In this document: in pieces, positions 1-23,591 of the stretch
Layout: the number at the start of each line of letters is the position of its first letter
How positions within the stretch are numbered: the first letter of the stretch is position 1
DNA from: a virus
Lineage: Duplodnaviria; Heunggongvirae; Uroviricota; Caudoviricetes
DNA: 64,000 nt
IMG/VR virus record: IMGVR_UViG_2667527592_000002
Strand: one strand, 5' to 3'
Position numbers and translations under genes: made by a program
The notes under the pieces: model-generated
The model's input: only the letters and a program-made list of their open reading frames with translations
The model's database searches: none
What the model was told of the DNA's origin: nothing

Positions 1-280
1 AAGGGTAGCCATTGTTGTATGCCTCATACAGCTGAATCCCGGATGTCCCCTGCGCATTCGACGCCAGAGCAGTTACTCGACCGCGTGATACCAGAGTATT
101 GATATTAATGTCAGCCGAACCATCGAACCTGACGCCATTAATGTTTCTGGCTGTTTTCAATTTCGTCGCGGTATCGGCGTTCCCTGTCAGCGCCCCGGTG
201 ATCCCGCCGTTGAAAGTCTGGCGCGCACTCCATGTGTTAGCCGTGCTCAACAGGGGGATCTTTTCACCGCTGGTACCGAG
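1..280 (-). CDS. tail-fibre variable C-terminal segment, partial (runs off window), no own start codon
   Basis: minus-strand translation reads ...LSTANTWSARQTFNGGITGALTGNADTATKLKTARNINGVRFDGSADINI..., typical Mu/P1 S-type tail-fibre repeats; frame stays open through crossover site. Confidence 0.6.
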
Positions 281-306
281 TTCTCTTAAACCAAGGTTTA
301 GGATTG
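281..306. other. invertase crossover site (hix/gix/cix-like)
   Basis: TTCTCTTAAACCAAGGTTTAGGATTG: two half-sites around central AA, same pattern as hixL TTCTTGAAAACCAAGGTTTTTGATAA (recalled); overlaps invertase stop codon. Confidence 0.6.
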
Positions 307-858
307 AAATGATGACGCCGGAAACTTCTTATAAAGAGTGGAAACAGCCACATCATAGATGATTGCAACCTGCTTACGGGGGATGCCCTTCTCCAGCAAT
401 CGCCGCATTTGCTGCCATGTTTCTTCCTGGTATTTAGGCCGACGCCCACCTATTCGACCTTCTGCGCGAGCTGCATCAAGTCCAGCGCGTGTACGTTCAA
501 CAATAAGTTCACGTTCCATTTCTGCCAGCGCCCCCATTACGTGAAAGAAAAAGCGCCCCATTGGTGTACTGGTATCGATGGAGTCAGTGAGACTCCGGAA
601 GTTAATGCCTCTGTCACGCAGCTCTTCCACCAGCACAACTAAGTGACGCATGCTGCGCCCAAGACGATCTAACTTCCATACGACCAGGGTGTCGCCTCTG
701 GAAAGCATACGGAGAACCTTTTTTAACCCTGGGCGTTCAGCCTTTTTGCCGCTCGCCTTATCCTCAAAAATTAGCTCACATCCTGCGCTTTCAAGGGCGT
801 TTCGTTGTAAAGCGGTGTTTTGGTCATTAGTTGATACGCGAATGTATCCAATAAGCAT
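298..858 (-). CDS. serine DNA invertase (Hin/Gin/Cin/Pin family)
   Basis: MLIGYIRVSTNDQNTALQRNAL... N-terminal catalytic Ser motif, C-terminal HTH ...STLYKKFPAS; 186 aa. Confidence 0.9.
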   Translation of the reverse strand: MLIGYIRVSTNDQNTALQRNALESAGCELIFEDKASGKKAERPGLKKVLRMLSRGDTLVVWKLDRLGRSMRHLVVLVEELRDRGINFRSLTDSIDTSTPMGRFFFHVMGALAEMERELIVERTRAGLDAARAEGRIGGRRPKYQEETWQQMRRLLEKGIPRKQVAIIYDVAVSTLYKKFPASSFQS

Positions 859-963
859 ATGTCCCCCCTTGTATGTTAAGGGGGGAGATTTTAGAAGATG
901 TCCTGTAAGGAAATAACAAACTGACTAAGTTAGTGGCGCATTAGATGTTATTTCTGGAGGGGT

Positions 964-1290
964 ATGTTTGCAGATTATGAAAATCTGGCTGTAGTAGTCA
1001 TAACATCCCTACTAAGTGGAACCGGCGTATTCCTTCTCGGAGTTAGAGACGGGCGCATTTCTGCGTCCCTGCTCAATCTTGCGAGTGAATTGTTTACTGC
1101 GGTAACAGCCGGGCTTGCGGGGTATGGGGTGGCGGTTAGCCAAGAATGGCCTGAAGGTATCATTTTCTGCGTTGTTCTGATTGCCAGTAACAACGGTAGT
1201 GAAATTTTACAGGGCTTGAAGTCCAGAGCTAGTAACGTCTTGAATCTCTTAAGCGTAATAGCGAATGGGGGAAAAGGTGGAGAGAAATAA
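964..1290 (+). CDS. putative holin (LydA-like by position and size)
   Basis: 108 aa, about three hydrophobic helices, RBS GGAGGGG before ATG; first gene of operon next to invertase. Confidence 0.45.
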   Translation: MFADYENLAVVVITSLLSGTGVFLLGVRDGRISASLLNLASELFTAVTAGLAGYGVAVSQEWPEGIIFCVVLIASNNGSEILQGLKSRASNVLNLLSVIANGGKGGEK

Positions 1291-1736
1291 TGGGTAACTT
1301 TGGAAATTATTTCATTTTTATCATGGCATTTGTTGCCATCATTGACCGTTTCATTTTTCGTCGCAAGAGTGTTGAGATTTTGAGTATTGGTGACGCTGTA
1401 GTGAAAGAATCCGCTATAGCATTTCCTGTTTCGCTACGTGTTAAGCGAAGCTGGGTCAGCAATGCTCAAATCGAATATTGGTTGCAAGACCTGAAAAATC
1501 CATCTGTGGTTATTTCAGGGAAAACGCGACCAGTTGACGCCTCAAAACGCGGTGAGAGAGAAGAGTATTTGCTCATCGATACGAAATATCTTGAGCCAAC
1601 GAAGTGGGATCTGAAAGTCACATTGACTAACGGTAACTGTCGACTGAATCCGCTTTATCGCATTTTCCCTATCAATGACTGCATAGAGCGCCAGTTTACG
1701 ATCGAAAAGCGTGAAGGAGACTGGGATGTCAAATAA
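1290..1736 (+). CDS. hypothetical protein (LydB/antiholin position)
   Basis: 148 aa ORF, start overlaps upstream stop; no recognisable motif. Confidence 0.3.
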   Translation: MGNFGNYFIFIMAFVAIIDRFIFRRKSVEILSIGDAVVKESAIAFPVSLRVKRSWVSNAQIEYWLQDLKNPSVVISGKTRPVDASKRGEREEYLLIDTKYLEPTKWDLKVTLTNGNCRLNPLYRIFPINDCIERQFTIEKREGDWDVK

Positions 1737-2346
1737 GAATAATTATGTTCTTCTTAATTATGCTGAATTAAACGAAAAGGGGCTGGCAAAACTCGTCAAA
1801 GAAATCAGCAAAGGTGGTTACAAGATAGCGAGGGTGATCCCTGCAAGTAATGGCAGGAAGAAAGATGGGATCATGACGCGCACGTTTACCCTTATTGGTA
1901 TTGATGAACAGACAATGGAAGTTCAGGTTAACGATACCGGCGATATATCTGGGATCAAACTGAATGGTAAAACAGTACCGTTCAAGCCAGTAAAAACAAT
2001 GTCGGCTTTGGGGCAATCTCTTGCGGCTTTATTTAATCGCGGAGCAACTTCTTTCCAGAAGTCATTAGCTCGAAAACTTGCTCGTGCAGCAAAAAATATT
2101 GATGACGGAAATAAGAAGCGGCAGGGAGTTAAATCTAACGCTCAGAAATTAGCTGAAGCGAAAGAATCACGTGATGCACTCCGTGAAGATATCGCTAATG
2201 CTAACGACAAACTGTCTAAACTCCAGAGCAAGTCAGACAAAGTAATGCAAGATACGGGTAACGTTAAAGCTGCCTTGTCTCAGGAAGTAGCTAAGACACG
2301 TGCTCTTAAAGAAGAAATCGCGCGCCTGGAGGATGAGCATGATTAA
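1726..2346 (+). CDS. hypothetical coiled-coil protein (Hdf position)
   Basis: ORF track 1711..2346; ATG at 1726 preceded by AAGGAG; C-terminal heptad-rich region. Confidence 0.3.
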   Translation: MSNKNNYVLLNYAELNEKGLAKLVKEISKGGYKIARVIPASNGRKKDGIMTRTFTLIGIDEQTMEVQVNDTGDISGIKLNGKTVPFKPVKTMSALGQSLAALFNRGATSFQKSLARKLARAAKNIDDGNKKRQGVKSNAQKLAEAKESRDALREDIANANDKLSKLQSKSDKVMQDTGNVKAALSQEVAKTRALKEEIARLEDEHD

Positions 2347-4264
2347 CAATCCTTTACGAATTAATATTCAGTCTACTTTTGCTGATACGATCCCCGGCTA
2401 TATGCCAAGTCGCTGGTCTTCAGAAGAATTAAGCGAAGATGACCTGATTTTTGAGGCGGCGACCTTAGAAGATATTGAGCTTGCCTATATGGGCAATGAA
2501 ATTCTGGTTGTGTCTGACGAAGCTATGTTTGAGTCCATAACTACAACCAGAATTCGGTTAGCTCAAACAATGCGAGCTTTCGTCCGTGCGCTGAATCGTG
2601 GCCTGAATGGTACGAATATTATGGCAGGGACTGATGAAGCTGGGACCGATGAAAATGGACGTAATTGTATTGGTGGTGCGATTATCGGTCGTGTACGTCG
2701 GGTAGCTAATATCCCTGTTTTGACCGCGCAGATACCGCTTACTGACGGGCAGAGTACAAGCATAATTTTCCACTCTCCAACAGCTGACGGGGCAAAAATA
2801 AAGAGTAACGACGAGCTTGTTGCATTTCAGTTTTTACTTAATAAGCGTAACGTAACTCACGTTGTCGCCCCGATTGGTGGGAGAGATGTTTCTTTAAGCC
2901 AGGTATGCCAGGCGCTATCTAATTTGATTGAGCGTAACAGCGAAAAATTTAAGAAAGCAAAAGAGCGCCAGGACAAAATGAAGGCAGATATTGAGAGTTA
3001 TCTCAATGAAGCAGATAAACTGGCAGAAGAACGGTCAATAATGATTGATCAGGTGGAAGTTGCGCAACGTGGGCTGACTGAAAAGCGTGCTGCTCTTACG
3101 GAGATGCAAAAAAAACTTGATGCCCAGAAAGCCATCAACGAGGAATTACAAGCAAAACGCGATAAATTGTTGTCTGCTAAAGGTGAAAAAACGAAAGAAC
3201 GAGCGTTTAGTGACCAGCTGCGACATGTAAAACATAATCTTGCCATTGACGGAAAAACAGTGCTGGATAATGGCGCTGAAGTTAATTATGTCACGTCCGG
3301 CAGTGATAATTTCGTTACGATAGTAGCACCTGAAGGTAAATTCAGTATTGATGCCAGTGCTGTCAAAGGAGGCAGTTTGGCAGATGCTGCAACCAAATTA
3401 CTTAAAGCCTACCGAGAGCATAACGCAGATAAATATAAAGTTGATGTGTTACCAGGCCAGCTGGAAGACTCCGAACTACCACAGACAGACCCCGAAACGA
3501 ACCCAGTATTACAACCAGAGAGCCAAGATGTAGGTAAATACCACTATGCACTTCAATCTCGCCCGGCTGGTGTTGGTGCTGTTCCGGATGGAAATAAAGC
3601 CGTGCTTGATCGTCCTGACCAGGCTGATCAGTATTACGAATATGCTCGTCACGGTATCATTACGTATGACCGTAAACTGACAGATGAAGAAGTCAGCCAG
3701 TACGAGTTGCTTTATCTTCCTGATGAAGATGAGCTGAAAGATTTTGCAGGCCAATTGGTTGCGTCCAGCATGTCGAAACATATTGATGGCTATGTGGACC
3801 TGTTTGGCAGTGACCTGAAAACATTCAAGGCGCAAGTGAAAATTCTTTTCCGCAAAGCGTTTCCAAACGTGGCGTATCCACTTAGTGATGGGGAGAACCT
3901 TTTCATTATGGACGTGAATAACGCCCTTCAAAATCATTCAAGCGAAGTAAAAACAGAGCATGTGGTTGAGCCAGAATCACAACCACAACCAGCACCAGAA
4001 CAGGAGTCGGAGCCAGAAGAAGCGGGTGAATCAGCAAGTGAAGCTGATCAGGAAGCAGATAAAGCGCTGGAGTACCTGAAATCCGTGCCGGAGCAGTTTA
4101 CATCCCGCGATCTGACGGTCATCAGTGCTGAACTTGATCATGTGCAGGAAGCAGCGAACGCTCTAATCAGTGCAGGTCGATACGACGAGAACGAAGCCAC
4201 TGTGGGTGCAGCAGTTGACTACCTGATCAATATTCTGGCTGAAATTCAGCAGGGAGGTGTTTAA
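2333..4264 (+). CDS. DarA-like large protein (positional and size analogy only)
   Basis: about 640 aa, central coiled coil, acidic C-terminal region; sits in lyd-dar-like operon; start 2333 or 2339 uncertain. Confidence 0.35.
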   Translation: MSMINNPLRINIQSTFADTIPGYMPSRWSSEELSEDDLIFEAATLEDIELAYMGNEILVVSDEAMFESITTTRIRLAQTMRAFVRALNRGLNGTNIMAGTDEAGTDENGRNCIGGAIIGRVRRVANIPVLTAQIPLTDGQSTSIIFHSPTADGAKIKSNDELVAFQFLLNKRNVTHVVAPIGGRDVSLSQVCQALSNLIERNSEKFKKAKERQDKMKADIESYLNEADKLAEERSIMIDQVEVAQRGLTEKRAALTEMQKKLDAQKAINEELQAKRDKLLSAKGEKTKERAFSDQLRHVKHNLAIDGKTVLDNGAEVNYVTSGSDNFVTIVAPEGKFSIDASAVKGGSLADAATKLLKAYREHNADKYKVDVLPGQLEDSELPQTDPETNPVLQPESQDVGKYHYALQSRPAGVGAVPDGNKAVLDRPDQADQYYEYARHGIITYDRKLTDEEVSQYELLYLPDEDELKDFAGQLVASSMSKHIDGYVDLFGSDLKTFKAQVKILFRKAFPNVAYPLSDGENLFIMDVNNALQNHSSEVKTEHVVEPESQPQPAPEQESEPEEAGESASEADQEADKALEYLKSVPEQFTSRDLTVISAELDHVQEAANALISAGRYDENEATVGAAVDYLINILAEIQQGGV

Positions 4265-4632
4265 TGACCATCTCTGTTTTAGACCGCCTGAAATTAGGTA
4301 AAGAGCTATCAGATCTAATGCAGGCGCAGAAAACTGCGCCAGTATTGCAACGCGTCACCATTGGTAAGCAGATTGTTGATGTGATGCTGAAATTGGGCCT
4401 GGGGACTGCCGTGCAACCGGCAGCGGAACCGCAACAACAGGCTGATCCTGTTGTAGATGAAGTCCCTAAGATAGTGACTGACTTCCTGGGCGGTGTGTTC
4501 ACAAAGTCCACACAAATGGAATTTATTGATGCGCTGCGTGGGATCTCAAACTATGTTGGCGAGTTCCTTACGTTGGAGCAGGCTAAAGAGCAGACCATAA
4601 GCTGGGTGAAAGCTAACGGTTATGCCGGGTAA
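4264..4632 (+). CDS. hypothetical protein (DdrA position)
   Basis: 122 aa, ATGA start/stop overlap with upstream gene. Confidence 0.3.
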   Translation: MTISVLDRLKLGKELSDLMQAQKTAPVLQRVTIGKQIVDVMLKLGLGTAVQPAAEPQQQADPVVDEVPKIVTDFLGGVFTKSTQMEFIDALRGISNYVGEFLTLEQAKEQTISWVKANGYAG

Positions 4633-4714
4633 TCAAAAGGGGCTGAAATGCCCCTTTCACTTATCTGTTCTCACATAAATCACACACTTTTTACACTCAC
4701 AGCTTTCTCTATAG

Positions 4715-6112
4715 TTGGAGTGTATTTTGAACAAATCAGTTACTTCTGCGCTTTCCGAGGCCGCAGATATTAACAGCGTCATTGCTCTGGTTTCTTCATT
4801 AGAGAGGAAAGAAACACGCCTGGGGCGAAGTAGCTACGTAGTCACCAGCAAAGGTGCAGAGGTAAAGACGGCTTTTAAGGTCGTTGATGCCAGCAGTCTG
4901 ATCATTTCGAACAACCTTGACGGTACGATTAACCCGGCCTTCCCGGAAGAACTCCAACCACGAGATCGTACCCGGCTATCCAGCAAACTCCAGGTTAACC
5001 GTATTGCCTCCAATTTACGCCCGGCACAATTAACGGATTCCGGTATGAGCAGCCACGGAGCGCCTATAGTTGGTCCGGACAACGTTGTTGAATCCGGCAA
5101 CGGAAGGAGTATGGGTATCTGGCGTGCCTATGAGCAAGGACAGGCGGATGAGTATCGCCAGTACCTGATCGACCATGCGAAAGAGTTTGGTCTGAATCCT
5201 GACGAAATTTCGCAAATGTCTATGCCCGTACTGGTGCGAGAAAGACTCACAGATGTAGACCGCGCTCAATTTGCCCGCGATTCAAACATTAGTGATCTGC
5301 AAGAGATGGCAGCAAGTGAAAAAGCGTATGCGGATGCGCAATTTCTCACTGAGAGTGTCATGGCGCTATTTAATCCTTCAGATGATGGAAATCTGCTGGC
5401 GCGGTCCAATGATGCGTTTATTCGTGCGTTTTTGCGCGAAATTGGCGATACAGCGACGGCAGGCTTGCTTACTGCCGATGGGCGTCCCACGAAACAGCTT
5501 ATCGATCGCATCCAGAATGCAATTTTTGCCAAAGCGTACAAGGATGAAAGGCTTGTTAGGCTGGTGTCGGAAGAGCCAGATCCGGAAATGCGTAATATCC
5601 TGACCGCATTAAATACGGCAGCCAGCGATTTTGCGCAAATGCAGTCGCTGTCTGGCGACGCTCACCATGACGCAGTAACAGGCTTAGTGGACGGTATAGA
5701 GCAGGTTAATGGCCTGGATACACAGGCGATAGCAGCACTCCAAGAAGCAATTAATCTTGTACGTGAAGCCAAAGACAACGGTCAGGCCGTTGAAGAAGTG
5801 ATCGCCCAAAGGGGGTTATTCGGCGACAGTACACCGGAAGCTGAGGCATTGGCGTTATTCATCGTAGCAAATAATCGCAGTGCGAAGCGTATGGGGGCAG
5901 CATTCAAAAAAATGGCGCAAAAAATCAACGACGAGCTGACTCATAAACAACAGGCATTGGGCGATATGTTCGGCGGTGGCGATGTTGATCTGCGTCGTAT
6001 TTTGTCTGCTGTATCTGATGAAATTGAGGGTGAATTTGGCGAAGGGAAAGGTCTGAACTTTGCTATGTTTGAAAATTCTACAGATCTAAATAATTGCCGT
6101 ACGGAAAACTAA
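4715..6112 (+). CDS. ParB/Srx-like N-terminal domain protein (DdrB position)
   Basis: motifs ...EELQPRDR... and ...VESGNGRSMGIWRA... resemble ParB box I/II (QPR and GxxRxxA); alternative start likely. Confidence 0.4.
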   Translation: MECILNKSVTSALSEAADINSVIALVSSLERKETRLGRSSYVVTSKGAEVKTAFKVVDASSLIISNNLDGTINPAFPEELQPRDRTRLSSKLQVNRIASNLRPAQLTDSGMSSHGAPIVGPDNVVESGNGRSMGIWRAYEQGQADEYRQYLIDHAKEFGLNPDEISQMSMPVLVRERLTDVDRAQFARDSNISDLQEMAASEKAYADAQFLTESVMALFNPSDDGNLLARSNDAFIRAFLREIGDTATAGLLTADGRPTKQLIDRIQNAIFAKAYKDERLVRLVSEEPDPEMRNILTALNTAASDFAQMQSLSGDAHHDAVTGLVDGIEQVNGLDTQAIAALQEAINLVREAKDNGQAVEEVIAQRGLFGDSTPEAEALALFIVANNRSAKRMGAAFKKMAQKINDELTHKQQALGDMFGGGDVDLRRILSAVSDEIEGEFGEGKGLNFAMFENSTDLNNCRTEN

Positions 6113-6176
6113 ACCAACCGCTGAAATCACATACTGATTATGCTGCCGCAAAACTGGAAACAATTTGCGGTGATTC

Positions 6177-7859
6177 ATGGCAACGAAAGACAAAAACAAA
6201 GGCTTTCTGTCAGCATTGAAGAAAGCCTTCAACGGTGGTGATGTTACGCCCGCCGATCCGGTCGTTTTTACGAGCGGGCATAGTGTCGTTGCTCGTTCCG
6301 GCCTGTCTGCTTTACGTCCAGGTATACTGGGGAGCAACAGCGATGGCATGACGAGTGCAGCAGATTCAATTTCTTTATCCGCTGAACTGCCCGGCGAGCG
6401 CCTGCAAAAGTACAACATCCTGGAAACGATGGCTAAAAGCCCGACTATCTCGACGGCTTTAAATATTCACATTGCACATGCGCTTGCGCCTTCAAAAAAA
6501 ACCGGACAAGCATTCATCCTTTCGCCAAAGGATGGTTCCGATGCTGAGGCAGTAAGTAGATGTGAAGAGTTAACTGCTGATTTGGGGGCGATGATTAATG
6601 ACGGACTTCCTTCATGGGCCATGATTATGGCGATCTTTGGGGTGTCTTATGTCCGCCCTTATGCTGAACAGGGCAGGGGGATAACAGGCATTGAGTCCAG
6701 TTATTACACTCTGCCACACTTCGTCCAGGAGTTTTATCGTGGTAGCCAGCTGGTAGGTTTCAGTGGTGATTACATCCTGGATACGCATAGTTTGCGCAGA
6801 GTAATAACCGAACCGTGGAATCTGGTTTCCATGAAAAATCCCTATTGGACGCCGCAGCATAAAGTTATTCCGGTCAGCTACGGCACAAAAGGGTACTCAC
6901 TGTTAAGTGAGCAGGCTGATAAGCCGTTAATGGAGACGCAGAATTACGGAACTTCATTCCTTGAATACAGCTATGAACCTTACCTGAATTTATGTGCTGC
7001 GCTCGCCGCGCTGAAATCAACGCGAAATAATGCAGCCAAAATTGACCGCCTGATTGCTCTTACGACGAACACACTGGACCCGGTTAATGCGGCGAACTAT
7101 ACGCGTGGCGTCAGCCAGGCATTGAAGCGCCATAGTGACCTGGTGGCGCAAAGGTCGATTAATGCCAACGCTATTCCGACGGTGCTTAACCACCTGATAC
7201 CTGTTATGGGAGACGGGAAGAACGGTATCACTATTGATACGCAATCCATACCCGCAGATATCAGTGGTATCGAAGACGTTATGTTTCACCTCCGGCAGCT
7301 TGCTGCAAGCCTAGGCATTGACGCAACAATGCTTGGCTGGGCTGATCAGATGAGTGGTGGACTTGGGGAAGGCGGTTGGCAGCAAACAGCTATCCAGGCC
7401 GCATTACGTGCGAACTGGATCAGACAGGCCGCGCAGCGAACTATTTATCGGCTTCATGATATTCACCTCGCTTATAAATACGGGAAGGTTTACACCGAAA
7501 AAAACCGTCCTTATGACGTGCAATTCAACTCAATGAACACTGCTATCCAGGAAGAGGAAAACCGGGAACTGGATGCACGCGCCAACTTTGTTGCTGTCAT
7601 CTCCCAAATTATGGACCAGATCCAGAACAACCCGAAACTGGCTGGTAGTGACGCGTTTATGCGTTATCTGTTCACCGAGCAGTTGCACATCGACGATGAC
7701 ACTCTCAACACCATGATCAAAGAGTTTAAGGCGAATGAATCAGAGCAAAACAACGAGCATGGTATGTACGAATCCGCGCCGTTGTCGTCCGGTGACGATC
7801 CGGAAAACTGGACGCCAGAACAGTTAATAAACTTTGCAAAATTTGTGATGAGCAATTAA
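6177..7859 (+). CDS. putative portal / virion morphogenesis protein
   Basis: 560 aa, size and neighbourhood only; no diagnostic motif. Confidence 0.3.
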   Translation: MATKDKNKGFLSALKKAFNGGDVTPADPVVFTSGHSVVARSGLSALRPGILGSNSDGMTSAADSISLSAELPGERLQKYNILETMAKSPTISTALNIHIAHALAPSKKTGQAFILSPKDGSDAEAVSRCEELTADLGAMINDGLPSWAMIMAIFGVSYVRPYAEQGRGITGIESSYYTLPHFVQEFYRGSQLVGFSGDYILDTHSLRRVITEPWNLVSMKNPYWTPQHKVIPVSYGTKGYSLLSEQADKPLMETQNYGTSFLEYSYEPYLNLCAALAALKSTRNNAAKIDRLIALTTNTLDPVNAANYTRGVSQALKRHSDLVAQRSINANAIPTVLNHLIPVMGDGKNGITIDTQSIPADISGIEDVMFHLRQLAASLGIDATMLGWADQMSGGLGEGGWQQTAIQAALRANWIRQAAQRTIYRLHDIHLAYKYGKVYTEKNRPYDVQFNSMNTAIQEEENRELDARANFVAVISQIMDQIQNNPKLAGSDAFMRYLFTEQLHIDDDTLNTMIKEFKANESEQNNEHGMYESAPLSSGDDPENWTPEQLINFAKFVMSN

Positions 7860-7872
7860 CCGGAGGGAAATA

Positions 7873-8871
7873 ATGCAATCACTGAATACTGTTACGGATC
7901 GCTTCTCCCTGGTAGAGAAAATCCGCAAACACACACCGCAGAACAACCGAAATTACGTCATTCAGTCGGTACGAGACACATTCAACTCGCCAGAAACAAA
8001 AGAGCGTATCGCGCTGGGGGAGATGTATGGTTATTACGGTCATGGTCGCCGGGCGATGCACTATAACAAAACGAAAAGCCTGAACTTGCCGGAAGTCTCT
8101 GTTGTGATGGTAGATGGGAAGCCTGTTGTATTGGAGAATGTGCCGTCAAACAGGACTATCGACATTTCGATTGACGACAACGGCATTGTTACGCATACGC
8201 AGGAAATACTGGATACAGACACCGGGCGTATTGTTCAGGGCATGATTAATTCTGGTGCTGGTGGTTGGTCGTGGGCTACATCTGGTCCAGATTCATCGGT
8301 ATCCCTGGTAAAGTCTTTCCACGGCTTTGATTACGTAACTGTGCCTAACTATATCAGCCTCGACAAGAAAAGCCTGATGCTTGAATCAGCAGAAGAGCGC
8401 GATGCGGCTATTCATGCAGCACTTATCGAACAAGGTTTTACCGATAACGCTGCTACGGATCTGGTTCACCACTTTTCAGCAATGAAAAATCAGCAAGCCA
8501 TGCTCGAATCTGCACATCGTGAAGCCCTGGAATCAGAATTGATGCTCCTTGAAGTGGAAAACATACAGCTTCGAGATAAGCTGCGCGCTCAAACAGCGAT
8601 GATGGAAAGCCAGGGGGAAAATGCAAAGCAATGCCGCCGGATTTTGCGTGACGCTATCCAGGAAATGCCTGTTTTTATCAGCGCAGAACAGCGCCGGGCG
8701 CTCTGCCGTATGCAGTCTGAAGATGATGCCCGCATAGTGGCTGCGATGCTTGAATCTCTTGGGGCAAATGCTACTTATGGCTTACCGGTATCAGGCAAGA
8801 AAGAACCAGAGTTATCACCGAAGGAGAACAAAAACACCACCCCGTTACTCTTCGTTTCTAGAAGGGGGTAA
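7873..8871 (+). CDS. hypothetical protein (head protease/scaffold position)
   Basis: 332 aa, C-terminal coiled coil; position after portal-like gene. Confidence 0.25.
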   Translation: MQSLNTVTDRFSLVEKIRKHTPQNNRNYVIQSVRDTFNSPETKERIALGEMYGYYGHGRRAMHYNKTKSLNLPEVSVVMVDGKPVVLENVPSNRTIDISIDDNGIVTHTQEILDTDTGRIVQGMINSGAGGWSWATSGPDSSVSLVKSFHGFDYVTVPNYISLDKKSLMLESAEERDAAIHAALIEQGFTDNAATDLVHHFSAMKNQQAMLESAHREALESELMLLEVENIQLRDKLRAQTAMMESQGENAKQCRRILRDAIQEMPVFISAEQRRALCRMQSEDDARIVAAMLESLGANATYGLPVSGKKEPELSPKENKNTTPLLFVSRRG

Positions 8872-8889
8872 CCGCCTTGTTAAGTTAAA

Positions 8890-8899
8890 TTTCTAACAT
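8890..8899 (-). promoter_or_regulatory. TGTTAGAAAA-type recurrent motif (candidate operator)
   Basis: tttctaacat on + strand, followed by palindrome gtgtatttatatacac (8901..8916). Confidence 0.4.
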
Positions 8900-8984
8900 A
8901 GTGTATTTATATACACTGTTGATCCTGGTGGATGGGATCGAGTAGGATCGCGGTCACTGCTCCGGTAGCGACTGCCAAAAAAGC

Positions 8985-9009
8985 AAAAGCCGCTGAGAAG
9001 CGGCTTTTT
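8985..9009 (+). terminator. rho-independent terminator
   Basis: aaaagccgct-gaga-agcggctttt followed by T-run. Confidence 0.6.
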
Positions 9010-9071
9010 GGGTGTATAAATCCACTGCCATAGATTTATACGGTAGATAGATTTTTTCACGGAACTATCTG

Positions 9072-10034
9072 GTGAGTATTTTAAATTCAGTTTCAGTAAC
9101 TTTCAACACTTCTGAGTATAAAAACAACACTGAATACCACAAAAAAATCAAAGGTCATCAGTTGAGTTTTTTTGCTCGTCATAGCGGTCTTCTTTCCCCT
9201 TCACATAGCGCCATTATTGCCGAGTTCGCCAACCTGGCAGGGTCTACCGATGAATACATGATCCGTCGCTCATATGCTGATATGTCCGAGATTACAGGAC
9301 GCAGCATTTCTACTGTGCGCCGGGCATTTGCTGAAGCGACGAAGTGCGGAATGCTTGTTAAGCAACATCAGGTAGCGAATAACAATGCCCAGGTGTGTAA
9401 CGTATATCGGTTTACGACACAATTTCTCCACTTCATTCATGTAGCAATGGAGATAGGGGGTAAGCAGGGCATCAAATTTGCCAACGCCACAAAGCTGGTT
9501 AAGCAATTGATTTCAAAGGTACGTTATTTTTTTGAAACTGGGAACCCCCTGTTCAAATTGAACAAGTCCCCCCATGTTCAAAATGAACAGCCAATAGAAA
9601 ATAAGAGTCACTCTATAGCCAAAAGAAGAGAAAGATCATGCGCGGTTCAGCCAAAGGCTTCACTAGCAAATAGTTCTCAAGCGGATAATGGGTGGCTGGA
9701 TAAAAAACCAGTAATCAGGGAAGAACATACCAACCACTGCCTGGCGGCGGCAAAAGCGAGAGCTGCAAAGCGTCGTTCAGACGAGGGGCACGCAAAACGG
9801 CAGGCTCTGTATCGTACCGCTGAAAAGCTGGCAAAAAAATTTGCATGGATACGTAGTGCCGCTACCGCAGTGAATAAGCCTAAACAATCCAGCGCCCTGG
9901 ATTTCTCAATGGATTATTCTGGCTCCCAGGGGTGTGCAACCATTGGTGAAGCCTTTGACCTGATGAAACAGCGTGGCTATCGGTCTGAATTTGACCGTGA
10001 GGATTGGTCAATCCCTGCGGGATTTAGGGGATGA
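9072..10034 (+). CDS. HTH DNA-binding protein, possible lytic replication initiator (RepL-like; speculative)
   Basis: 320 aa; ...MSEITGRSISTVRRAFAEATKCGMLVK... HTH; two internal palindromes TGTTCAAATTGAACA / TGTTCAAAATGAACA at 9550..9589. Confidence 0.3.
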   Translation: MSILNSVSVTFNTSEYKNNTEYHKKIKGHQLSFFARHSGLLSPSHSAIIAEFANLAGSTDEYMIRRSYADMSEITGRSISTVRRAFAEATKCGMLVKQHQVANNNAQVCNVYRFTTQFLHFIHVAMEIGGKQGIKFANATKLVKQLISKVRYFFETGNPLFKLNKSPHVQNEQPIENKSHSIAKRRERSCAVQPKASLANSSQADNGWLDKKPVIREEHTNHCLAAAKARAAKRRSDEGHAKRQALYRTAEKLAKKFAWIRSAATAVNKPKQSSALDFSMDYSGSQGCATIGEAFDLMKQRGYRSEFDREDWSIPAGFRG

Positions 10035-10086
10035 CCTGTGTGTCTACAAAACATCCCAATGATCGGAAAATGCTCGCTCGATAATT

Positions 10087-10098
10087 TGTGTTAGAAAA
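10087..10098 (+). promoter_or_regulatory. TGTTAGAAAA-type recurrent motif
   Basis: tgtgttagaaaa; second partial copy tgtttctaaat about 10 nt downstream. Confidence 0.4.
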
Positions 10099-10447
10099 TT
10101 AATTTGCTGTTTCTAAATCGGAATGTATGATCTGCATCATCGACTGAAGTCATCCATTGCTGAAATTTTTAGTTGATCTTCCATGTTTTCAGGCTTATAT
10201 TCATGCCGTCGTAGCAAATTCTGCGACCGGGTTTGACAGCCTGAATACTTACGCGGACAACCGCACATTTCCGATATTGCGGTATTTTTGTGTCCGTAAA
10301 ACCACGTTACGCCCGAATTATGGTGGGGCGTGATGGGGAGGCTTCGGCCTGCTGGTTTCGTAAGTGCCAGTCTGTCAACCCTGTCACGTCCTGCCACCTG
10401 TTTGACAGCGGGTCGCAGGTTGTTTATCAACTTACGAGGCCGTAACT

Positions 10448-10672
10448 ATGGTTAATGCCAATCCTTGCTCACGTCCAGAATTCATCTGGCGTTTCCACTC
10501 CCTGCAAAAACACTGCGATCACTTCGCAATTGCCGCAACCGAAAAAGAAGCCCGTTCTCTGATCCCTGATCAGTATGGTGTTCTTACTGGTCGTTTCTCT
10601 ACTTCCCCACAACCAAACACTAATCCCTGGTATCGCAATATTACCAATCCCGGAATTGCGGAGGCACACTGA
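10448..10672 (+). CDS. Icd-like small protein (cell-division inhibitor family; copy 1)
   Basis: 74 aa, ...EFIWRFHSLQKH...AIAATEKEAR...; paralogue at 50569..50784; precedes Ant-like gene with ATGA overlap. Confidence 0.45.
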   Translation: MVNANPCSRPEFIWRFHSLQKHCDHFAIAATEKEARSLIPDQYGVLTGRFSTSPQPNTNPWYRNITNPGIAEAH

Positions 10673-11379
10673 TGGAAATCTGCATTCTTGAAAAGCCATC
10701 AATGACCAGCATTGAGATCGCGGAGCTGGTGGGAAGTCGCCCGGATAACGTTAAACGCACTATTGAACGCTTGAGTAAATCAGGTGTTATTCCACTTCCT
10801 CCAATGGAGGTTTCCGAAAATATCAATAACTTAGGATTTAAAGTTAAAAATTCACACTACGTCTTCGAAGGCGAGCAAGGCAAGCGTGACAGTATCATTG
10901 TCGTTGCGCAGCTTTCTCCCGAATTCACCGCCCGGCTGGTGGACCGCTGGCGCGAACTGGAAGAACAAGTACGCCAGCCGTTGACCGAAATAGAGATGAT
11001 CGCCGCAATGGCTGCAAATGCAGTTCAGCAGCAAAAGCGGCTTCATGTTGTTGAGTCAAAGGTTAGCCAGGTGGTAGAAACCGTCGAGCAAATCAAGAAG
11101 GGCAACATGCCGGAAGGTTACATTGGCTACCGCCAGCTGGCGGCGAAATGCGGCCTGACCGAAGCCAAATGCCGCAACCTTGTCAACGCTTACCGGATTC
11201 CCACCGATACGCATGAGTTTTTAACTCCAGAGGGGGTATTGTCGCGTCGTTCCATCGTCGCCTTATCTCCCTTCATGAATGCTTTTAACCGGATGATGTC
11301 GGAGGCTGAACACCGAGGAAAACGTTGGTATCACCCAAAAATGGGGCAATTCCAGGTGATCGGTTGGGGAGGTGAGTGA
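10672..11379 (+). CDS. Rha/Ant-family antirepressor (copy 1)
   Basis: N-terminal MTSIEIAELVGSRPDNVKRTIERL (phage Rha-type motif); paralogue of 50784..51725. Confidence 0.7.
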   Translation: MEICILEKPSMTSIEIAELVGSRPDNVKRTIERLSKSGVIPLPPMEVSENINNLGFKVKNSHYVFEGEQGKRDSIIVVAQLSPEFTARLVDRWRELEEQVRQPLTEIEMIAAMAANAVQQQKRLHVVESKVSQVVETVEQIKKGNMPEGYIGYRQLAAKCGLTEAKCRNLVNAYRIPTDTHEFLTPEGVLSRRSIVALSPFMNAFNRMMSEAEHRGKRWYHPKMGQFQVIGWGGE

Positions 11380-11576
11380 TGGACATCATGCAGGCGGTAA
11401 AAAAAATCAGGGAAGGACAGGCTGAAGTGTGCCGCCGTAAAGCATGGAGTGTTGGTGTATGGGCCTGGCCTGATAATTACTCTACTACCGGATGGTTTTG
11501 TATTAATGGACTCCAGATCCGGGAAGTTGATTTATCGACGGCTGATATAGTCGGTAATGATTGGATGGTGACTTGA
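11376..11576 (+). CDS. small DUF2829 (Tad2-type)-like protein
   Basis: 66 aa, ...KKIREGQAEVCRRKAW...DLSTADIVGNDWMVT; matches C-terminal extension of Ant copy 2. Confidence 0.4.
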   Translation: MMDIMQAVKKIREGQAEVCRRKAWSVGVWAWPDNYSTTGWFCINGLQIREVDLSTADIVGNDWMVT

Positions 11577-11584
11577 AGCGTGAT

Positions 11585-11609
11585 GCCCCGGCCTGGCCGG
11601 GGCTTTTTT
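11585..11609. terminator. bidirectional hairpin terminator
   Basis: gccccggcctggccggggc + TTTTTT between convergent genes. Confidence 0.6.
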
Positions 11610-12094
11610 CATGCCTCATTAGTTGAGGTTGCTGCGTCTCCGACTGGTAACAGCGCGGTATTGCGTGGTTCGCCAGCAGGCCAGCGATAGCCAGACACTC
11701 TTGATGTTGGGAATGCGCGAATATTAACCGCATCCCCCTGGTTCCCACCCAAGACAAGCAGATCGCCATTGGCGCGGCGTCCGACAACGAAGCCTACGTG
11801 CCCACCGCCTACGCGGGTAAATACAACGATACATCCGTATGCCGGTGTATCTAATTTCTCGCCCCAATCCAGATAGGATTTTGCCGACTCAAATCTTGTT
11901 GAGCGGATGCCTACACGTTCCAGCATTGCACCGACAAATGCTGCGCACCACGGCGTTTCATCGTCTTTAATTCCGCCGCGCTTGATGTCGCGCCAGAACT
12001 GAACGATTTCAGGGTTGTGTTTAGCGCCTTTTATTTCAGTCAGGCCAATGTGCTTACGGGCTTCAATTAGCCAGCGAGGTTCAATGTTTGCCAT
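11609..12094 (-). CDS. CHAP / NlpC-P60-like cell-wall peptidase
   Basis: ...TPWCAAFVGAML... Cys nucleophile context and ...GGGHVGFVVG... His motif; 161 aa. Confidence 0.55.
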   Translation of the reverse strand: MANIEPRWLIEARKHIGLTEIKGAKHNPEIVQFWRDIKRGGIKDDETPWCAAFVGAMLERVGIRSTRFESAKSYLDWGEKLDTPAYGCIVVFTRVGGGHVGFVVGRRANGDLLVLGGNQGDAVNIRAFPTSRVSGYRWPAGEPRNTALLPVGDAATSTNEA

Positions 12095-12244
12095 ATTTTT
12101 CTCCCGGTCATGGGTTAATAAGTAGGCAAACTATGGGGAGTATGTGATTTTGACGGTAGTATCGTCCCCCTGAAAATAACATTCTCCATACCCTCTCAAC
12201 CGTACCGCATAGCGGAATTTTTACGGTTTAGAGGGGGAAATCCT

Positions 12245-15200
12245 TTGGACAAACTACTTCATTCAATCAGTGAAGCCTCCAGCTTAGGCGAACTGATTGA
12301 AATTGTTAGTCGGTTGCATAAATTACGTGCTGTTGCGACCTTTGGCGTCAGGAAAGCCGATGGCGTCAGTATTCAGAAAACACGCCGGGCAGCAAACAAC
12401 GCCGCAGTAAATCTTCTTAATTCCCTTCCGCCCGGCTTCGATGGGGCGAAATTAACTGACGAACAACGTCAGATTCTTGCCGGGTATACCGGTGAAGGTG
12501 GCCTGACAGATGGTGAGGGCAGCCAATACGAATACTACACGCCACAGTTTATGGCTGAAGGTATATGGGATCTGTTTGCTGACTACGGTATTGATGGTGG
12601 GCACGTACTGGAACCATCAGCGGGCACAGGTATTTTCCAGGAGACAAAACGGCAGGGCATGATAATGACCAGCGCCGAACTGTCTCCGATTTCCGGTCGA
12701 ATAAACCAGCTTTTGCACCCGGAAGACGATGTGAATATCGGGGCGTTTGAGGCGCTGGCGGCGAAAGACGCAATGTATGACCACGCTGTTGGTAACGTAC
12801 CGTTTGGTGAAGGGCGTTCCGGCGTTGCCGGGCTTGATCCGGCATATGCAAACGAGAAGAACGTTGGCAATTACTTTGTGTTGCGCACGATCGACAAGGT
12901 TAAGCCTGGTGGACTAATTGTATTGGTGGTGCCGAATGGCATGACCGATGGTACGAAATACAAAAAATTGCGCGATAAAGTCAGCCGTAAAGCGGAATTT
13001 TTGGGCGCACATCGTATGCCTTCTGGTACGTTCAGCGAATCCGGTACAGATACCGTGGTGGACGTATGGGTATTGCGTAAACACCCGGAAACCTTCCTGG
13101 AGATGATCCCCGACACGGATGATGCAACGCTCAAATCGGCAAACGTCCTTTGGGATACCTTCCTCAAAGGGAAATGGTTTACAACCGAAGGGAAGCGATT
13201 TGTTTACGGCGACATGGAACGCACCAGCTTCCGCAATACCCTGGTGGTGAAAAAGGATGGTCGTGTATCCAATGAGTCGATGAAAACCGCGCTATCTCGT
13301 CGCTTTGATAGTCGCATCAATTGGGATTTGCTCGGCGTAACTACTCAGGCATGGCAGGGCGCGAAAGTGGGCGATAAACGCCTTGTAGGCGGTATCTGGC
13401 ATGAGTTTGATGGCCTGAAATGGGTTAAGGACACGACAACCAAATCCTCCGCGCTTGATGTAAGTCGATATGGTGTTTCGACGTTTGGCGATCTGCAGAT
13501 CGCGTTCCAGTCAACAAACGGGATTCTGGCTTTGTCATGGGACCAGATATCGGCGATCGCGTCCGACTATCCATCGGTTGTCAGTGATGAAGTGGCAGCA
13601 ATGATTCGCTTTGCTGGCAAGCAGCGAGAAAAAGACAGGGAGCGCGTTATGCGCGGTGCGCTGATAGGTCAGTTGATCAACAAGGCACTTGATTTGCGTA
13701 ACCTGGGTGTGAACGTTGATGACAAACTGGCAGATGCATCCCGCCTGGCGGCAGCAGAAGTTGCGAAGTATGGACCACCGCACGCGATTAAGCTGAATGG
13801 GCTTGCTGAAGCTGGCGCTAAAAACTGGATGACGTTCACTGGCAATGTGAAACAGGATGGTTCCACTTCTGACCTTCTGGCAGGGCGACTTGATGTAACG
13901 GATGGTGCTGCCGGTATTGACTTTACCCGTCCTGAACAAGTGATAGCACATCTTTTCAGTGATGTAGCCCTTAATCCTATAACGCTGGGAGACTTTCGTG
14001 AGGCGTTTGCTGGTGAACTGCCAGAGGACGACGACGCGGCCCTTGAATTCCTGGCGAAATTTGATGATATCGCTATTGATGGGTATGGCTGCCTGCTGCC
14101 GATGGACCGCGCCACCAGCGGCGATATTGCAACCAAAACAGCATTGCTGGTGGGCTGGCGTGATGCGTCAATAGGTGAGCAGAAAGCGAACTTTGAGCGT
14201 CAGTTGGCGAAAATCGAAGAGAAACGCATTTTCACGCCACTAAATAAAGTCACCGTTAATCTGAACGCCCGCTGGCTGGATCGCCGCTTGATAAAAGAGT
14301 TCCTGGCAGAGCAGGGCTATGACGAGTTTAAGTACACTGAACCTGATCTGAAGGTCGTCGATGGCATTCTGGTATCTCCGGACGATTACGAAGGTAAGGA
14401 CGGGGTATTTACCGGCTATCAGCTACGAACCGTAAACGGCAAAAACGGGAATGAGTTCAAGAAGGCCAACAATAAAGACGGCTTCCTGAACCAGTTAGAA
14501 AACTACCTGAACGGCGTCAAACCGCGCGGGCAGAACGCTAACGAGTACCTGGATAAGATTGCTCAACTTGAAGTTAGCTTTAACGACTGGTTACGCACTC
14601 ACCCGCAGGCTGATCAGATAGCCCGTGACTATAACGACGCATTCAATGGTTTCATTCCGTTCACGCATTCTGACGCACCGCTTGGCCTGGAAGGGCTTAG
14701 TGGAAAGCGCATTCCTCTTACTTATCAGAATGAAGAAGTTCGGCGCTTGTCAGAAGATGGGCGCGGCATCATGGGATTTGGTACCGGGCTGGGTAAAACC
14801 ACGACCGCGCTTGCGCTTGAGGCGTATAACTTCGAAACAGGTCGCACTAAACGCACGTGTATTGTTGTTCCGAAGGCGGTTTATCAGAACTGGTATCACG
14901 AGGCACAGAGTTTCTACAGTGCTGATGCCTTCGCCAATATGATGTTTATCGGTTTGGATGAAGTTCGTGATGACAGCGGAAATATTCTGACCGCGCCGGT
15001 GCTTGATGAAAATGGCGAACCACGCCTCGACAGTAACGGGCAGCCTCTTACCAGAAATGTTGTGAAAGAGTCCGCCAGCGCCGTTATCGTTCAGCGCATG
15101 AACATGATCCCGTCGTCAAATTGGCGAACGGTCATCATGACAAAAGAACAATTCGCGTCTATCCCGCTACGAGAAAAAACCATCGAGGAGAACTCACAGC

Positions 15201-18200
15201 AAGCTGTCTTTAATGCTGTGGAAATGGGGCGTCTTGACCTGGCGTCCGGTAAACACCGTGATGCGCAGAAGAAGAACAAGATTAAGGATCAGGCCGCGAA
15301 TACCGGTACAACGAAGAAGCAGAATATCCCGTACTTTGAGGATATGAACTTCGATAGCGTGATTGCCGACGAGGGGCATAACTACCGCAACTCCTTTAAT
15401 GCCGGGCGTGAAGCGGGACAACTGGCATATTTGCCTAATCCGGCAGTATCCAAGATGGCCCGCGACATGGCTGTAAAAGCTGCGTACATGATGAAACGCA
15501 ACAACGGGCGTGGTGTAGTCATGCTGACGGCAACTCCGCTGGTGAACAGTCCGATTGATGCCTTCAACATGCTGTCTACTGTCATTCCGCAGGAAGAGTG
15601 GATGCGCATGGGCATCATTACGCCTGATGATTTCGTTCGTGTGTTTGGCAAAACAGCCACAGTTCAGGTCCAGAAAATTTCCGGGGAAGTGGAAGAGAAG
15701 CAGGGGCTGGTGGGCTTCCAGAACCTTGACGGCCTGCGTGGTATTTTCCATCGTTGGACCACTCTGAAGACTGCTGCAGATGTCGGAGCGACGGTTAAAA
15801 TTCCCGACATCATTGAGAACACCTTGCAGATCCCGATGACAGGGGAGCAGGAGACTGCTTATGAAGAGCTTCGTAAGCGTGCTCAGGAGTTAAGTCGCAA
15901 TGATGAGCTGACAGTCGATGAAAACGGGCATATCACTAACGACAAACCAGATGATTTCATCTTCTCCATCATCCGTGACATGGACAAGGTTGCTATAGAC
16001 CCGGATCTGTATGCCAGTGCGATTACATTCCAGTTCCCCGTTGAGCTTGCAGACCAGGTAAAAGCTATTGCTGATGCCTTGCCAAAAGTAGCTGGCGGTA
16101 AAGTGGCAGATGATGTTGATGAGGCCGAGGAAGACGGCGCTGGCGGGCTGGTCAGTACGCGTACCAGCAAGGTAGTGAAGACCGCTTTTAGTGAACATCC
16201 GACGCATGTTGAAATACGTGCCAGCATTGAACTGGAAGCTGAAATACTGAAGGCCATTGCGGCTGCCGGTATTGATATGCAGCAGGTATCGCACCCCATC
16301 CCGCCGAAGTATGCCGCGCTGATCGAAAATCTTCGTGAAGGTCTGAAGAACGGTAAGCAGATCGTCTTTATTGATGAAAAAGCCCAGCACCAGAAGCTGC
16401 GCCGTATTATCGCCAGTGCACTGCAAATGCCGGAGCAGGAGATTGGCATTATCAATGCGACGACAGTTAGCCAGGCTGGCGGCATCAAGCTGAAGAAGGT
16501 GAATAAGCCGACCGAACCTACTCCAAACAAAAACGGTGAATACAAAGAAGGGGCATGGGAAACCTACTACAGCAAACTTGCACAATATGAGGATTATCTC
16601 TCAGCTAAAAATGATGCTGGCCTTGAGGGCATGGAAGGTATTGCCGCCGACTATAACGAAGGTCGCACGCGCATCATAATCTGTAACAAGAAGGCTGAAG
16701 TAGGTATTAACCTGCACATCGGGACAACCGATATCCATCACCTGACACTACCCTGGACACCAGCCAGTATCGACCAACGAAATGGGCGCGGTGCGCGCGT
16801 AGGTTCACCGCAAGAAAAGGTCAATGTTCACTACTATTGTGGCAAAGGCACATTCGATGACTTCCGTCTGGATACGCTGAAACGTAAGAAAGACTGGATC
16901 AAGATGGTGATGACATCCGACATGTCAGAGATCGCCAATGGTGATGCAGATGATGCTGATGAACGCGCCATTATGCTGGCGGCAAACCCGGAAGAACGCC
17001 GCGCAATCATGGCTCGCCAGGCGCAAGAGCGTGAAGAACGTCTGAAACTGAAAGCACAGCGCGAGGCCAACAATGCTCTCGATATCTACCTGAAAGCGGC
17101 AAACGCCGCCGGAAAAGATATCGGCATGATGGAGACAGAACTGAAAAGCGCGATGGAACAGATAGAGTATTACCAGCGCAATCTTGACGACCTGATAAAA
17201 GCGGGTACGAACAGGAATGGGCAAAAATACGCGCTTGAGCAGTTGAGTAGCTACAGAAAACGTGCGCGGGTGCTGCGGTTTGCGATCACCATGGCAAAAG
17301 ACGCGGATACCATAATGAAACGCTCTCGTGGTGATGTGGAGCGCGCTATTAAGTCTGGTGTGCTGGATATCAGTATCGATGTTATTCAGAACCCACAGGA
17401 ATATATGCGCACTGACAAGAATATCCTGTTGCATAAAGGTAGTTATTACCGTGCAGTCATTGATGATCGCGAAACAACAGCGATTGTCCGGGTGGAAAAA
17501 ATTGACGGTGAAAAAGCACAATACATCTGCCGTATCGCCTGGCTGGATAGAGCAAGTCGTTACGCTCGATCACCGGGGTCAATCGTTACATTGCCGTTTG
17601 ACTCTGTGATTGAAGCGGTAACTTTTGAAGAGGGGGTTGCTGAATCACGCGCAACGGCTGCGCGTGGTGTTCAGTGCCACCAGCTATCAACAATACTTAC
17701 TCGCGATCAGTTCTATGATGCTATTCGCAATGGGGTAATGAATGTTATTGCTGGTAAACCTGGTAATGCATGGGGCGGTGGATCAGCTATTAAATACTGG
17801 GCCTATCGCACAGATGATGGGCAGATCGCGCTGTCATCGACCTATGATGGCGTGATAGGCCAACAAATCGGGCGAGCATCGGATATAGCACCTGAACGAT
17901 GGATATATCCTGATGGCAACGACGAGGCGCTGAAGCGTGAAGTGGCAAAAATACAAGCCAGTGATAACCCGCTGAATATCGTGGACGGAGAGGGATTCCT
18001 CCAGGCATTGTATGGGTATGATTACATCCAGGGAATGCAGGCATGGGGCGCACAAGCGACGATGGATGATGTTGCCCAGGAGTTCGAAAACTGGATGGCT
18101 GGGCGTGGTCTGTCAGGTCGTTCGCTTAATAAAGTCACTTCTGAAGATATTCTTAGCTTGTTCCGTAAACCGTCCGGAGAAGGTCTGGAATCATTCTGGA

Positions 18201-19081: not shown

Positions 19082-19117
19082 CAGATAAGGAGCGGCCCCA
19101 ACCGGGGCCGAATTTGA

Positions 19118-19552
19118 ATGACGACATTAATTGACACTGTAAAACCGACGGAATCCTACCTTGAGGACATTTTGCCGCAGGCGCTCAATGGCAGGAGTGA
19201 AGAGGCGTTTCTGGATGCATATCTGAATGGCATGGTGGAAAGGCTGAAACGAGATCCACAGCTTTATCACCTTTATGGGCCGTGGTGGCCTGCGCTTAAA
19301 ACGTTATTGCTGGAGCGCGGCGACATATCATTTGGACAAGTTGTAGATAGTGATGTGGCAGAGATCTACAAAATGAGTCGCCCGGCGCTTACGGTTTTGG
19401 CTGGGCATCTGTATTCGAGCGATCGCCTGGAAAATGACGCGGTATACAATCCCGTTCATGCTCTGGAAGTCGCACCTTATGCTGATGATACAGAGCCATA
19501 CGTGTACACAAGTTACGACGAGTCTATAGAGAAATATCGAATCATGGGGTAG
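19118..19552 (+). CDS. hypothetical protein
   Basis: 144 aa ORF directly after DarB-like gene. Confidence 0.3.
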   Translation: MTTLIDTVKPTESYLEDILPQALNGRSEEAFLDAYLNGMVERLKRDPQLYHLYGPWWPALKTLLLERGDISFGQVVDSDVAEIYKMSRPALTVLAGHLYSSDRLENDAVYNPVHALEVAPYADDTEPYVYTSYDESIEKYRIMG

Positions 19553-19554
19553 CC

Positions 19555-19815
19555 ATGCGAAAGAATCGTAGGTTTACGGTCGAAGACCTAAAGGAATATT
19601 CCATATCGAAGGGGTATGTCCTTGAGTTCCACCGATACAAGAAGGTTTTTACGCTGCGAAAAGCAGAAAACCCCGCGAACTGGAGCTGGGTATACTTTCC
19701 TCACACCGATGATAAGTTGGTAGAACTTGTTGATGATTTAACCTATGAAGGTTGGTTGATCGCAATCGACAAGACAATCAGAGAATTATCCGAACAGGAT
19801 AAAATAACCCTTTAA
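19555..19815 (+). CDS. hypothetical protein
   Basis: 86 aa ORF, tight spacing. Confidence 0.3.
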   Translation: MRKNRRFTVEDLKEYSISKGYVLEFHRYKKVFTLRKAENPANWSWVYFPHTDDKLVELVDDLTYEGWLIAIDKTIRELSEQDKITL

Positions 19816-19951
19816 AAATAATAGGTTGGGTAAATGCCATGCGATTTACCCTCCTTGTTGATTAAGGTCACTCTTTACTCTAAAAGCAAATCCGACCTGT
19901 TGCATATAGACCATCCTTGAGTAGTATCTCTCTTGTTTTACAAATCTAACG

Positions 19952-20446
19952 TTGTTGTTATTATTTCGCATATTTACTATCAATAGGTATGTTAGAAAAA
20001 TATCGCGAAAGAGAAGGCGTCGCAGTGAATATTCTGAAACATCCCCACATGCCGCAGCTCTTAGAGAACTGGAGAAAAACCCAGATCTAATCAAAAGGAA
20101 CCATGAGCATTACGAGCAGGTTCGCGTCCTGGACTGGTTGTATCGCAATATGCGTTATGTGTATGAGCATACTCACGCCACTCCAAACGGTGGCCTGCGA
20201 GGCATAAGGACGGCAATAAAAATGGTGGCAGAGGGCCAAAAGAAGGGATATCCCGATCTTTCTATAGACCTTGCTTGTGGGGGATACCACGGAATGCGCA
20301 TTGAGATGAAACATGGGAGAAATCGCCTGACTCCCGAACAACTCGTCTGGATGACCCGCCTCACTGAAGCCGGTTACTACTGCTTTGAGGCGCGCAGTGC
20401 CGCTGAAGCCATAAAAGCTATCACGGAGTATGTTTGTCTTGATTAA
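19952..20446 (+). CDS. VRR-NUC domain nuclease (start uncertain)
   Basis: ...KKGYPDLSIDLACGGYHGMRIEMKHGRNRLTPEQLVWMTRLTEAGYYCF...; PD-(D/E)xK-type motif. Confidence 0.6.
   Translation: MLLLFRIFTINRYVRKISRKRRRRSEYSETSPHAAALRELEKNPDLIKRNHEHYEQVRVLDWLYRNMRYVYEHTHATPNGGLRGIRTAIKMVAEGQKKGYPDLSIDLACGGYHGMRIEMKHGRNRLTPEQLVWMTRLTEAGYYCFEARSAAEAIKAITEYVCLD
19988..20000 (+). promoter_or_regulatory. TGTTAGAAAA-type recurrent motif
   Basis: tatgttagaaaaa. Confidence 0.4.
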
Positions 20447-20460
20447 ACGGAGAAATCGTT

Positions 20461-20661
20461 TTGCGTTTACTTAACGTGGCAGAACTTATCCCTGCAGGAA
20501 CTAATGCTATCGCTCGTCGTCGCTCATGGCAGCAGGCTCTATGTATTGAGATCTCGAAACGTATCAATGGAAGTTTTGAAGCTCGCAATATTGTTACTGG
20601 CGATAAGGTTCACATAACCCCGGAAAGTGCAAGCGCTGATGATTGGGAGTTTGTACATTGA
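20461..20661 (+). CDS. hypothetical protein
   Basis: 66 aa ORF. Confidence 0.25.
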   Translation: MRLLNVAELIPAGTNAIARRRSWQQALCIEISKRINGSFEARNIVTGDKVHITPESASADDWEFVH

Positions 20662-20957: not shown

Positions 20958-20965
20958 TTGCATAA

Positions 20966-23589: not shown

Positions 23590-23591
23590 AT

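Follow-up and report, generated by a model that had tools for sequence, protein, structure and literature searches.

The cin-proximal boundary of an invertible tail-fibre segment at the start of a D6-like phage-plasmid contig

The first 858 positions of the DNA analysed here (a stretch of 64,000 nt, hereafter the window) raise a question about the expression of a tail fibre. A gene for a DNA invertase ends inside a 26-bp site and, on the minus strand, a fibre reading frame runs through the same site with no start of its own. Is this one edge of a host-range switch of the Mu G or P1 C type, as the original prediction held, and is that switch intact? The comparisons presented below support the prediction and supply the names of the parts: the site is cixL, the enzyme is Cin, and the fibre residues are those that follow cixR in gene S. 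Positions 1..858 are read here as the edge, on the cin side, of the invertible C segment in a D6-like (P1-family) phage-plasmid of E. coli, with a probability of about 0.96, and nothing found contradicts this reading. The observation is real and correctly read, yet it is an ordinary one, as the Cin/cix host-range switch is already well known. Indeed, programmed DNA inversion by Cin/cix has stood in the textbooks since the early 1980s; the locus does not extend that knowledge, and the P1 and D6 records already carry annotations of these sites.

The invertase gene and the crossover site

The open reading frame next to the site is, judged by its sequence, a gene for an intact serine DNA invertase of the Gin/Hin/Pin type, Cin. 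Its product matches the Pfam domains Resolvase (E 3e-51, residues 3-135) and HTH_7 (E 2.7e-18, residues 138-181), and over residues 1-182 it matches the Mu Gin crystal structures 3uj3 (E 3e-89) and 4m6f (E 8e-88). The protein is identical to Cin of pRHB23-C14_2 and differs by two substitutions from Cin of D6 and by two from Cin of P1 (184 of 186 residues identical; 538 of 561 nucleotides at the DNA level). The surrounding sequence follows the same pattern, with 97.7% identity to Escherichia phage D6 over window positions 1..1300 and 95.9% identity to phage P1 over 1..860. Inside the 5' end of cin lies a putative recombinational enhancer (Table 1), which shares 68 of its 72 nucleotides with the element annotated in P1 as 'enhancer of Cin-mediated C-segment inversion' and all 72 with D6. 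Dependence of such enhancers on Fis is general knowledge for the invertase family.

The leader of cin contains a GC hairpin, UCCCCCCUU-(7 nt)-AAGGGGGGA, which stops 3 nt short of the cin AUG and takes in the sole Shine–Dalgarno-like run of the leader. By alignment, the hairpin is kept in D6 and pRHB23-C14_2, while P1 has unrelated sequence in its place. On folding, the stem appears in both the minimum free energy and the centroid structures, and the whole 86-nt leader has a z-score of -1.67. A consensus scan for promoters and terminators over positions 1..1400 returned none above shuffles, and the hairpin was not listed as a terminator.

The site itself, TTCTCTTAAACCAAGGTTTAGGATTG, is an imperfectly dyad-symmetric sequence at the 3' end of cin, where it overlaps the last codons of the gene and its TAA stop at 298..300. 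It has a 12-2-12 layout, in which 8 of 12 positions are shared by the half-sites TTCTCTTAAACC and CAATCCTAAACC and the central AA at 293..294 corresponds, by homology to P1, to the 2-bp exchange point. At up to 3 mismatches the site has no second match in the 64-kb window, and the same threshold gave 0 matches in 100 shuffles; in a separate scan, no further copy was found elsewhere in the window at up to 7 mismatches. In the GenBank records of both D6 and P1, the equivalent of 281..306 is annotated as cixL and that of the 298..858 reading frame as cin. The P1 record further places a 20-bp cixL core at the equivalent of window 284..303, Cin binding at 277..307 and the crossover at 293/294. A chance origin of the site is rejected, since it is unique in the window and identical to cixL.

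Table 1. Positions of the switch components and neighbouring elements in the window
Feature	Coordinates	Strand	Basis or remark
cixL crossover site	281..306	.	Unique in the window; identical to the annotated cixL of P1 and D6
cin, serine DNA invertase, 186 aa	298..858	-	Open reading frame, stop TAA 298..300; predicted catalytic Ser9 in YIRVSTNDQ
Recombinational enhancer (putative, by homology), inside the cin 5' end	769..840	-	P1/D6 homology
Perfect 9-bp hairpin in the cin leader	862..886	-	Alignment and fold; any function is conjectural
Cin-proximal arm (part) of the long inverted repeat ending the invertible segment	1..304	.	Comparison with CP076716.1 and P1
Silent start-less variable tail-fibre segment, 5' end, first 97 codons past the crossover	1..293	-	Open frame; truncated by the contig end

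The start-less fibre frame and the partner site

The minus-strand fibre frame (codons starting at 307, 304 and so on) differs from the frame of cin and is open for 109 codons, from a TAA at 329..331 to position 1. The codons between that stop and the crossover read GAA GTT TCC GGC GTC ATC ATT TCA ATC CTA AAC CTT; none of them is an ATG, GTG or TTG, and the earliest canonical start in the frame is the TTG at 250..248. The encoded residues (LGLRELGTSGEK...) are those found after cixR in gene S of P1, D6 and related plasmids. More specifically, the residues LGLRELGTSGEKIPLLSTANTW... are 100% identical to the post-cixR part of S in pRHB23-C14_2 and near-identical to S of P1 and D6. A Pfam search with the 102-aa fibre fragment gave no family match; the fragment is identified as a tail-fibre segment by its identity to annotated S proteins. 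Adjoining minus-strand sequence is annotated as S' in D6 and as 'Sv prime' in P1, the C-terminal moiety of an alternative tail fibre. The predicted arrangement thus holds at the stated coordinates, with the invertase stop TAA 298..300 lying inside the 26-bp site and an open fibre frame passing through the site with no start before the crossover.

The window corresponds to bases 1..64000 of the draft contig JXWE01000020.1 (GCA_000948835.1, 88,762 bp), and identity to this contig was checked from base 1 over all 14,264 nt fetched. Position 1 is therefore the first base of a draft contig, so that the fibre segment is truncated by an assembly break and the partner site cannot lie in the window. 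An exact-protein look-up placed the exact sequence of the window's DarA-like protein (2339..4264) on three contigs: this draft contig, a Logan contig of SRR1783862 and the closed plasmid CP076716.1 (92,478 bp). Over all 14,264 nt compared, the plasmid and the window are 100% identical. The ecoli_genomes and plasmids collections contained no identical record (best 98.7% and 99.3%). Compared with this 92.5-kb closed twin, the draft contig lacks about 3.7 kb, roughly the size of the segment interior.

In CP076716.1, an S gene of 925 aa contains the partner site cixR, TTATCCAATACCTTGGTTTAAGAGAA, which is inverted and lies 4,302 bp upstream; the central TT of this site becomes AA when inverted, matching cixL. 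A second, inverted site a few kilobases upstream, on which the prediction turned, is thus found in the identical closed proxy, not in the window. The same inverted pair occurs in P1, D6, pRHB23-C14_2 and pVP441, the two sites lying 4,139-4,302 bp apart. The segment is bounded by a long inverted repeat (630 nt and 97% complementary in CP076716.1; 636 nt and 98% in P1), and position 1 of the window sits 293 nt inside the 630-nt repeat. An independent unitig assembly behaves similarly, the Logan contig of SRR1783862 beginning at window position 268, at the cix site. Breaks of this kind are typical assembler behaviour at a long inverted repeat and alone are no evidence of two orientations. They do have a practical side, in that the inverted repeat of the invertible segment breaks short-read assemblies exactly at the cix boundary.

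The closed twin also gives the contents of the segment. Its two variable parts have about 215 residues in common, beyond which their C-terminal tips differ, and each is followed by its own Caudo_TAP assembly gene. In the silent part, next to cin, the frame runs on for 552 codons before it reaches its own stop. Compared with the two arms of CP076716.1, window positions 1..293 show 0 mismatches on the cin side and 4 on the Sc side, at 128, 158, 173 and 245, and therefore the sequenced molecule was in the same state as the closed twin. By homology, that state has the P1 Sv'-type tip fused to Sc, the constant part of S, and the other tip silent beside cin. Because the tip that adjoins cin in the closed twin is, on the same homology, not the Sv' of P1, 'silent variable segment' is a more accurate label for the window feature than 'Sv prime'.

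The geometry at the two sites is the same. Across cixR, S of P1, D6 and pRHB23-C14_2 reads GTT ATC CAA TAC CTT GGT TTA AGA GAA (...VIQY-LGLRELG...); across cixL, the window reads TCA ATC CTA AAC CTT GGT TTA AGA GAA (...SILN-LGLRELG...). At both sites the crossover TT supplies the last two bases of the same CTT codon, with identical residues downstream. With the TT at the same place in the same codon, either variable part fuses in frame.

A segment with two tips could also be part of a larger repertoire. In a multi-site, shufflon-like system of the p15B Min type, more than two tips would be permuted through several crossover sites; Min is closely related to Cin, and similarity to p15B around cin is noted in the P1 record. 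However, scans at up to 7 mismatches gave just two sites in each fetched stretch that spans the whole segment (21.9 kb of CP076716.1 and 14.9-20.0 kb of the four relatives), against a single site in the 64-kb window, and the segment of 4.1-4.3 kb holds exactly two tips and two assembly genes. A shufflon is accordingly a most improbable reading of this locus, and a two-site C segment is retained.

Several side observations concern the tips and their annotation. The receptor-binding end of the cin-proximal tip of CP076716.1 (6311..7336 of the fetched stretch) is mosaic relative to P1, with about 700 nt that have no strong match to P1 or D6 save for a 319-nt block at 89-90%; the reference phages therefore lack one of the tips that this lineage carries. 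The D6 record places the start of its S' coding sequence at an internal TTG (9250 of the fetched stretch, equal to window 250), which is an annotation artefact. The gene call on CP076716.1 (6311..7291 of the fetched stretch) covers 326 aa of the 552 open codons, and PGAP leaves the start-less segment unannotated in pVP441. In practical terms, gene callers assign false starts to the start-less segment, so that the two-tip host-range repertoire of these widespread phage-plasmids is understated.

Inversion in nature and the working of the switch

Records of related plasmids hold the segment in both orientations. When every locus is turned so that cin points the same way, pRHB23-C14_2, pVP441 and CP076716.1 have the segment one way round and the D6 and P1 records the other. 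A pair of isomers comes from two Salmonella Thompson plasmids, CP092511.1 and NZ_CP092628.1, both of 92,361 bp. Over 6,150 nt of flank the two are identical, and the 4,302-bp segment of one aligns with that of the other (99.93%) only after reverse complementation, exactly from cix centre to cix centre. Differing only by inversion of this segment, the two plasmids are natural inversion isomers, and the switch flips in nature in this lineage. The inverted segment occupies 5..4306 of the fetched locus, and in each record the circle has been opened inside cixR, 4 nt from the crossover. Two 1,389-nt isomers of the cin-side junction were built from CP076716.1 and searched in PLSDB at a coverage of at least 80%. 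Among closed records, the junction as found occurred in 39 and the inverted junction in 114, with best hits at 99.9-100% identity.

These isomers bear on whether the locus could be a frozen remnant, in which the partner site, enhancer function or Cin expression has been lost and only one fibre type is made. The idea has some basis: there are published P1-like plasmids in which cin is truncated or the C segment degraded (PMC6906374), the S gene is interrupted by IS elements in relatives such as pVP441, the window by itself does not reach the partner site, and the leader hairpin masks the ribosome-binding region of cin. On the other hand, cin is full length with its Ser9, cixL is unchanged and the enhancer is identical to that of D6. 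Further, in the identical twin CP076716.1 cixR is intact, both tips are open and neither assembly gene is missing, and near-identical plasmids are exact inversion isomers. A frozen remnant is therefore very unlikely, and the locus is better read as one edge of an invertible C segment. As regards the insertions themselves, pVP441 (NZ_CP121358.1) carries IS1203 (IS3 family) at 1448..2661 of the fetched stretch, in the constant part of S, and NZ_CP027309.1 carries another IS1203 in 6 kb of window-equivalent sequence with no listed recombinase. In some relatives, the fibre or the switch is therefore probably disabled.

For the working of the C segment, the catalytic mechanism, the Fis dependence and the consequence for host range are taken over from the P1 and Mu literature and would apply here by analogy. 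In systems of the Gin/Cin/Hin type, Cin dimers at two cix sites meet the Fis-bound enhancer; cleavage proceeds through Ser9 with a 2-bp stagger at the central dinucleotide and is followed by rotation and religation. In the present plasmid, Cin would bind the two 26-bp cix sites, which would lie about 4.3 kb apart and inverted, and together with the enhancer within cin would exchange strands at the central dinucleotide so that the segment flips. The constant part Sc would provide the promoter and the start codon from outside the segment and would end at cixR. Inside the segment, two alternative variable parts would stand head to head, each with an assembly gene of its own (U or U') behind it. 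The variable part facing Sc would be fused in frame and expressed, while the other would adjoin cin, have no start codon and stay silent; it is this silent copy that the window contains. Inversion would switch the receptor-binding tip and, with it, the host range. In P1, exchange of S and S' (with U and U') alters host range, and the biology of this switch has been summarised (bioRxiv 10.1101/2022.07.24.501295; PMC6906374). A corresponding change of host range is suggested here by the two divergent C-terminal tips in CP076716.1.

Relation to known systems, the cin leader and other features

Among the closest known systems are the D6-like phage-plasmids of E. coli and Salmonella, a described group whose closest closed members are 99-100% identical to the window. 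With D6 itself (MF356679 / NC_050154), the window shares the gene order cin-lydA-lydB-hdf-darA, and the D6 record annotates cixL and cixR at the equivalent places. Besides the two Cin substitutions, the locus differs from D6 in that the segment is opposite in orientation to the D6 record. The arms of the inverted repeat are much more alike here (97%) than in D6, where they form two blocks at 86-93%.

The Cin/cix system of P1 (and P7) has the same cixL (26 of 26 bp), the same overlap with the cin stop and the same position of the enhancer in cin. The architecture is shared as well, with the order Sc-cixR-Sv-U / U'-Sv'-cixL-cin, a 0.6-kb inverted repeat and a 4.3-kb segment. The differences from P1 are minor. 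The sequence upstream of cin in the window is unrelated to that of P1; lydC is missing, lydA comes directly next, and the cin start is closely preceded by the GC hairpin. In CP076716.1, one tip is also mosaic against P1 S at its receptor-binding end.

Further counterparts are Gin/gix of Mu, Pin of e14 and Hin/hix of Salmonella, which have enzymes of the same family (Gin structures, E 3e-89) and belong to a different host element. The Gin, Pin and Hin systems share the 26-bp, 12-2-12 site design and an enhancer inside the recombinase gene; their site sequences presumably differ from cix at several positions. Mu follows the same logic of a constant S part with two variable tips, and the P1 record notes 92-94% identity of segment parts to Mu, whereas Hin flips a promoter and not the 3' end of a gene.

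Two further readings of the cin leader and its transcripts may be offered, and together they are unlikely. In the first, the leader hairpin, a feature of the D6 lineage that P1 lacks, could set or damp the translation of Cin and hence the rate at which the host-range switch flips. In the second, which is the less likely of the two, transcripts of cin may run into the silent fibre copy, because cin ends inside cixL and the consensus scan gave no terminator-like site downstream on the minus strand, and an N-terminally truncated tip may then be made from the TTG at 250.

Elsewhere in the window, two paralogous modules of the immunity type lie at 10195..11379 and 50304..51725. Each consists of a C4 antisense RNA (Rfam 69.6 and 76.7 bits) followed by a small Icd-like reading frame and a Rha/Ant-like reading frame; the module at 10195..11379 also has an a1/b1 target element, and that at 50304..51725 also has an isrK match. 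One such immI module is known from P1. Finally, the plus strand at 23514..25121 carries a cluster of four tRNA genes, namely Asn-GTT, Thr-TGT, Ser-TGA and one tRNA with a CAT anticodon.
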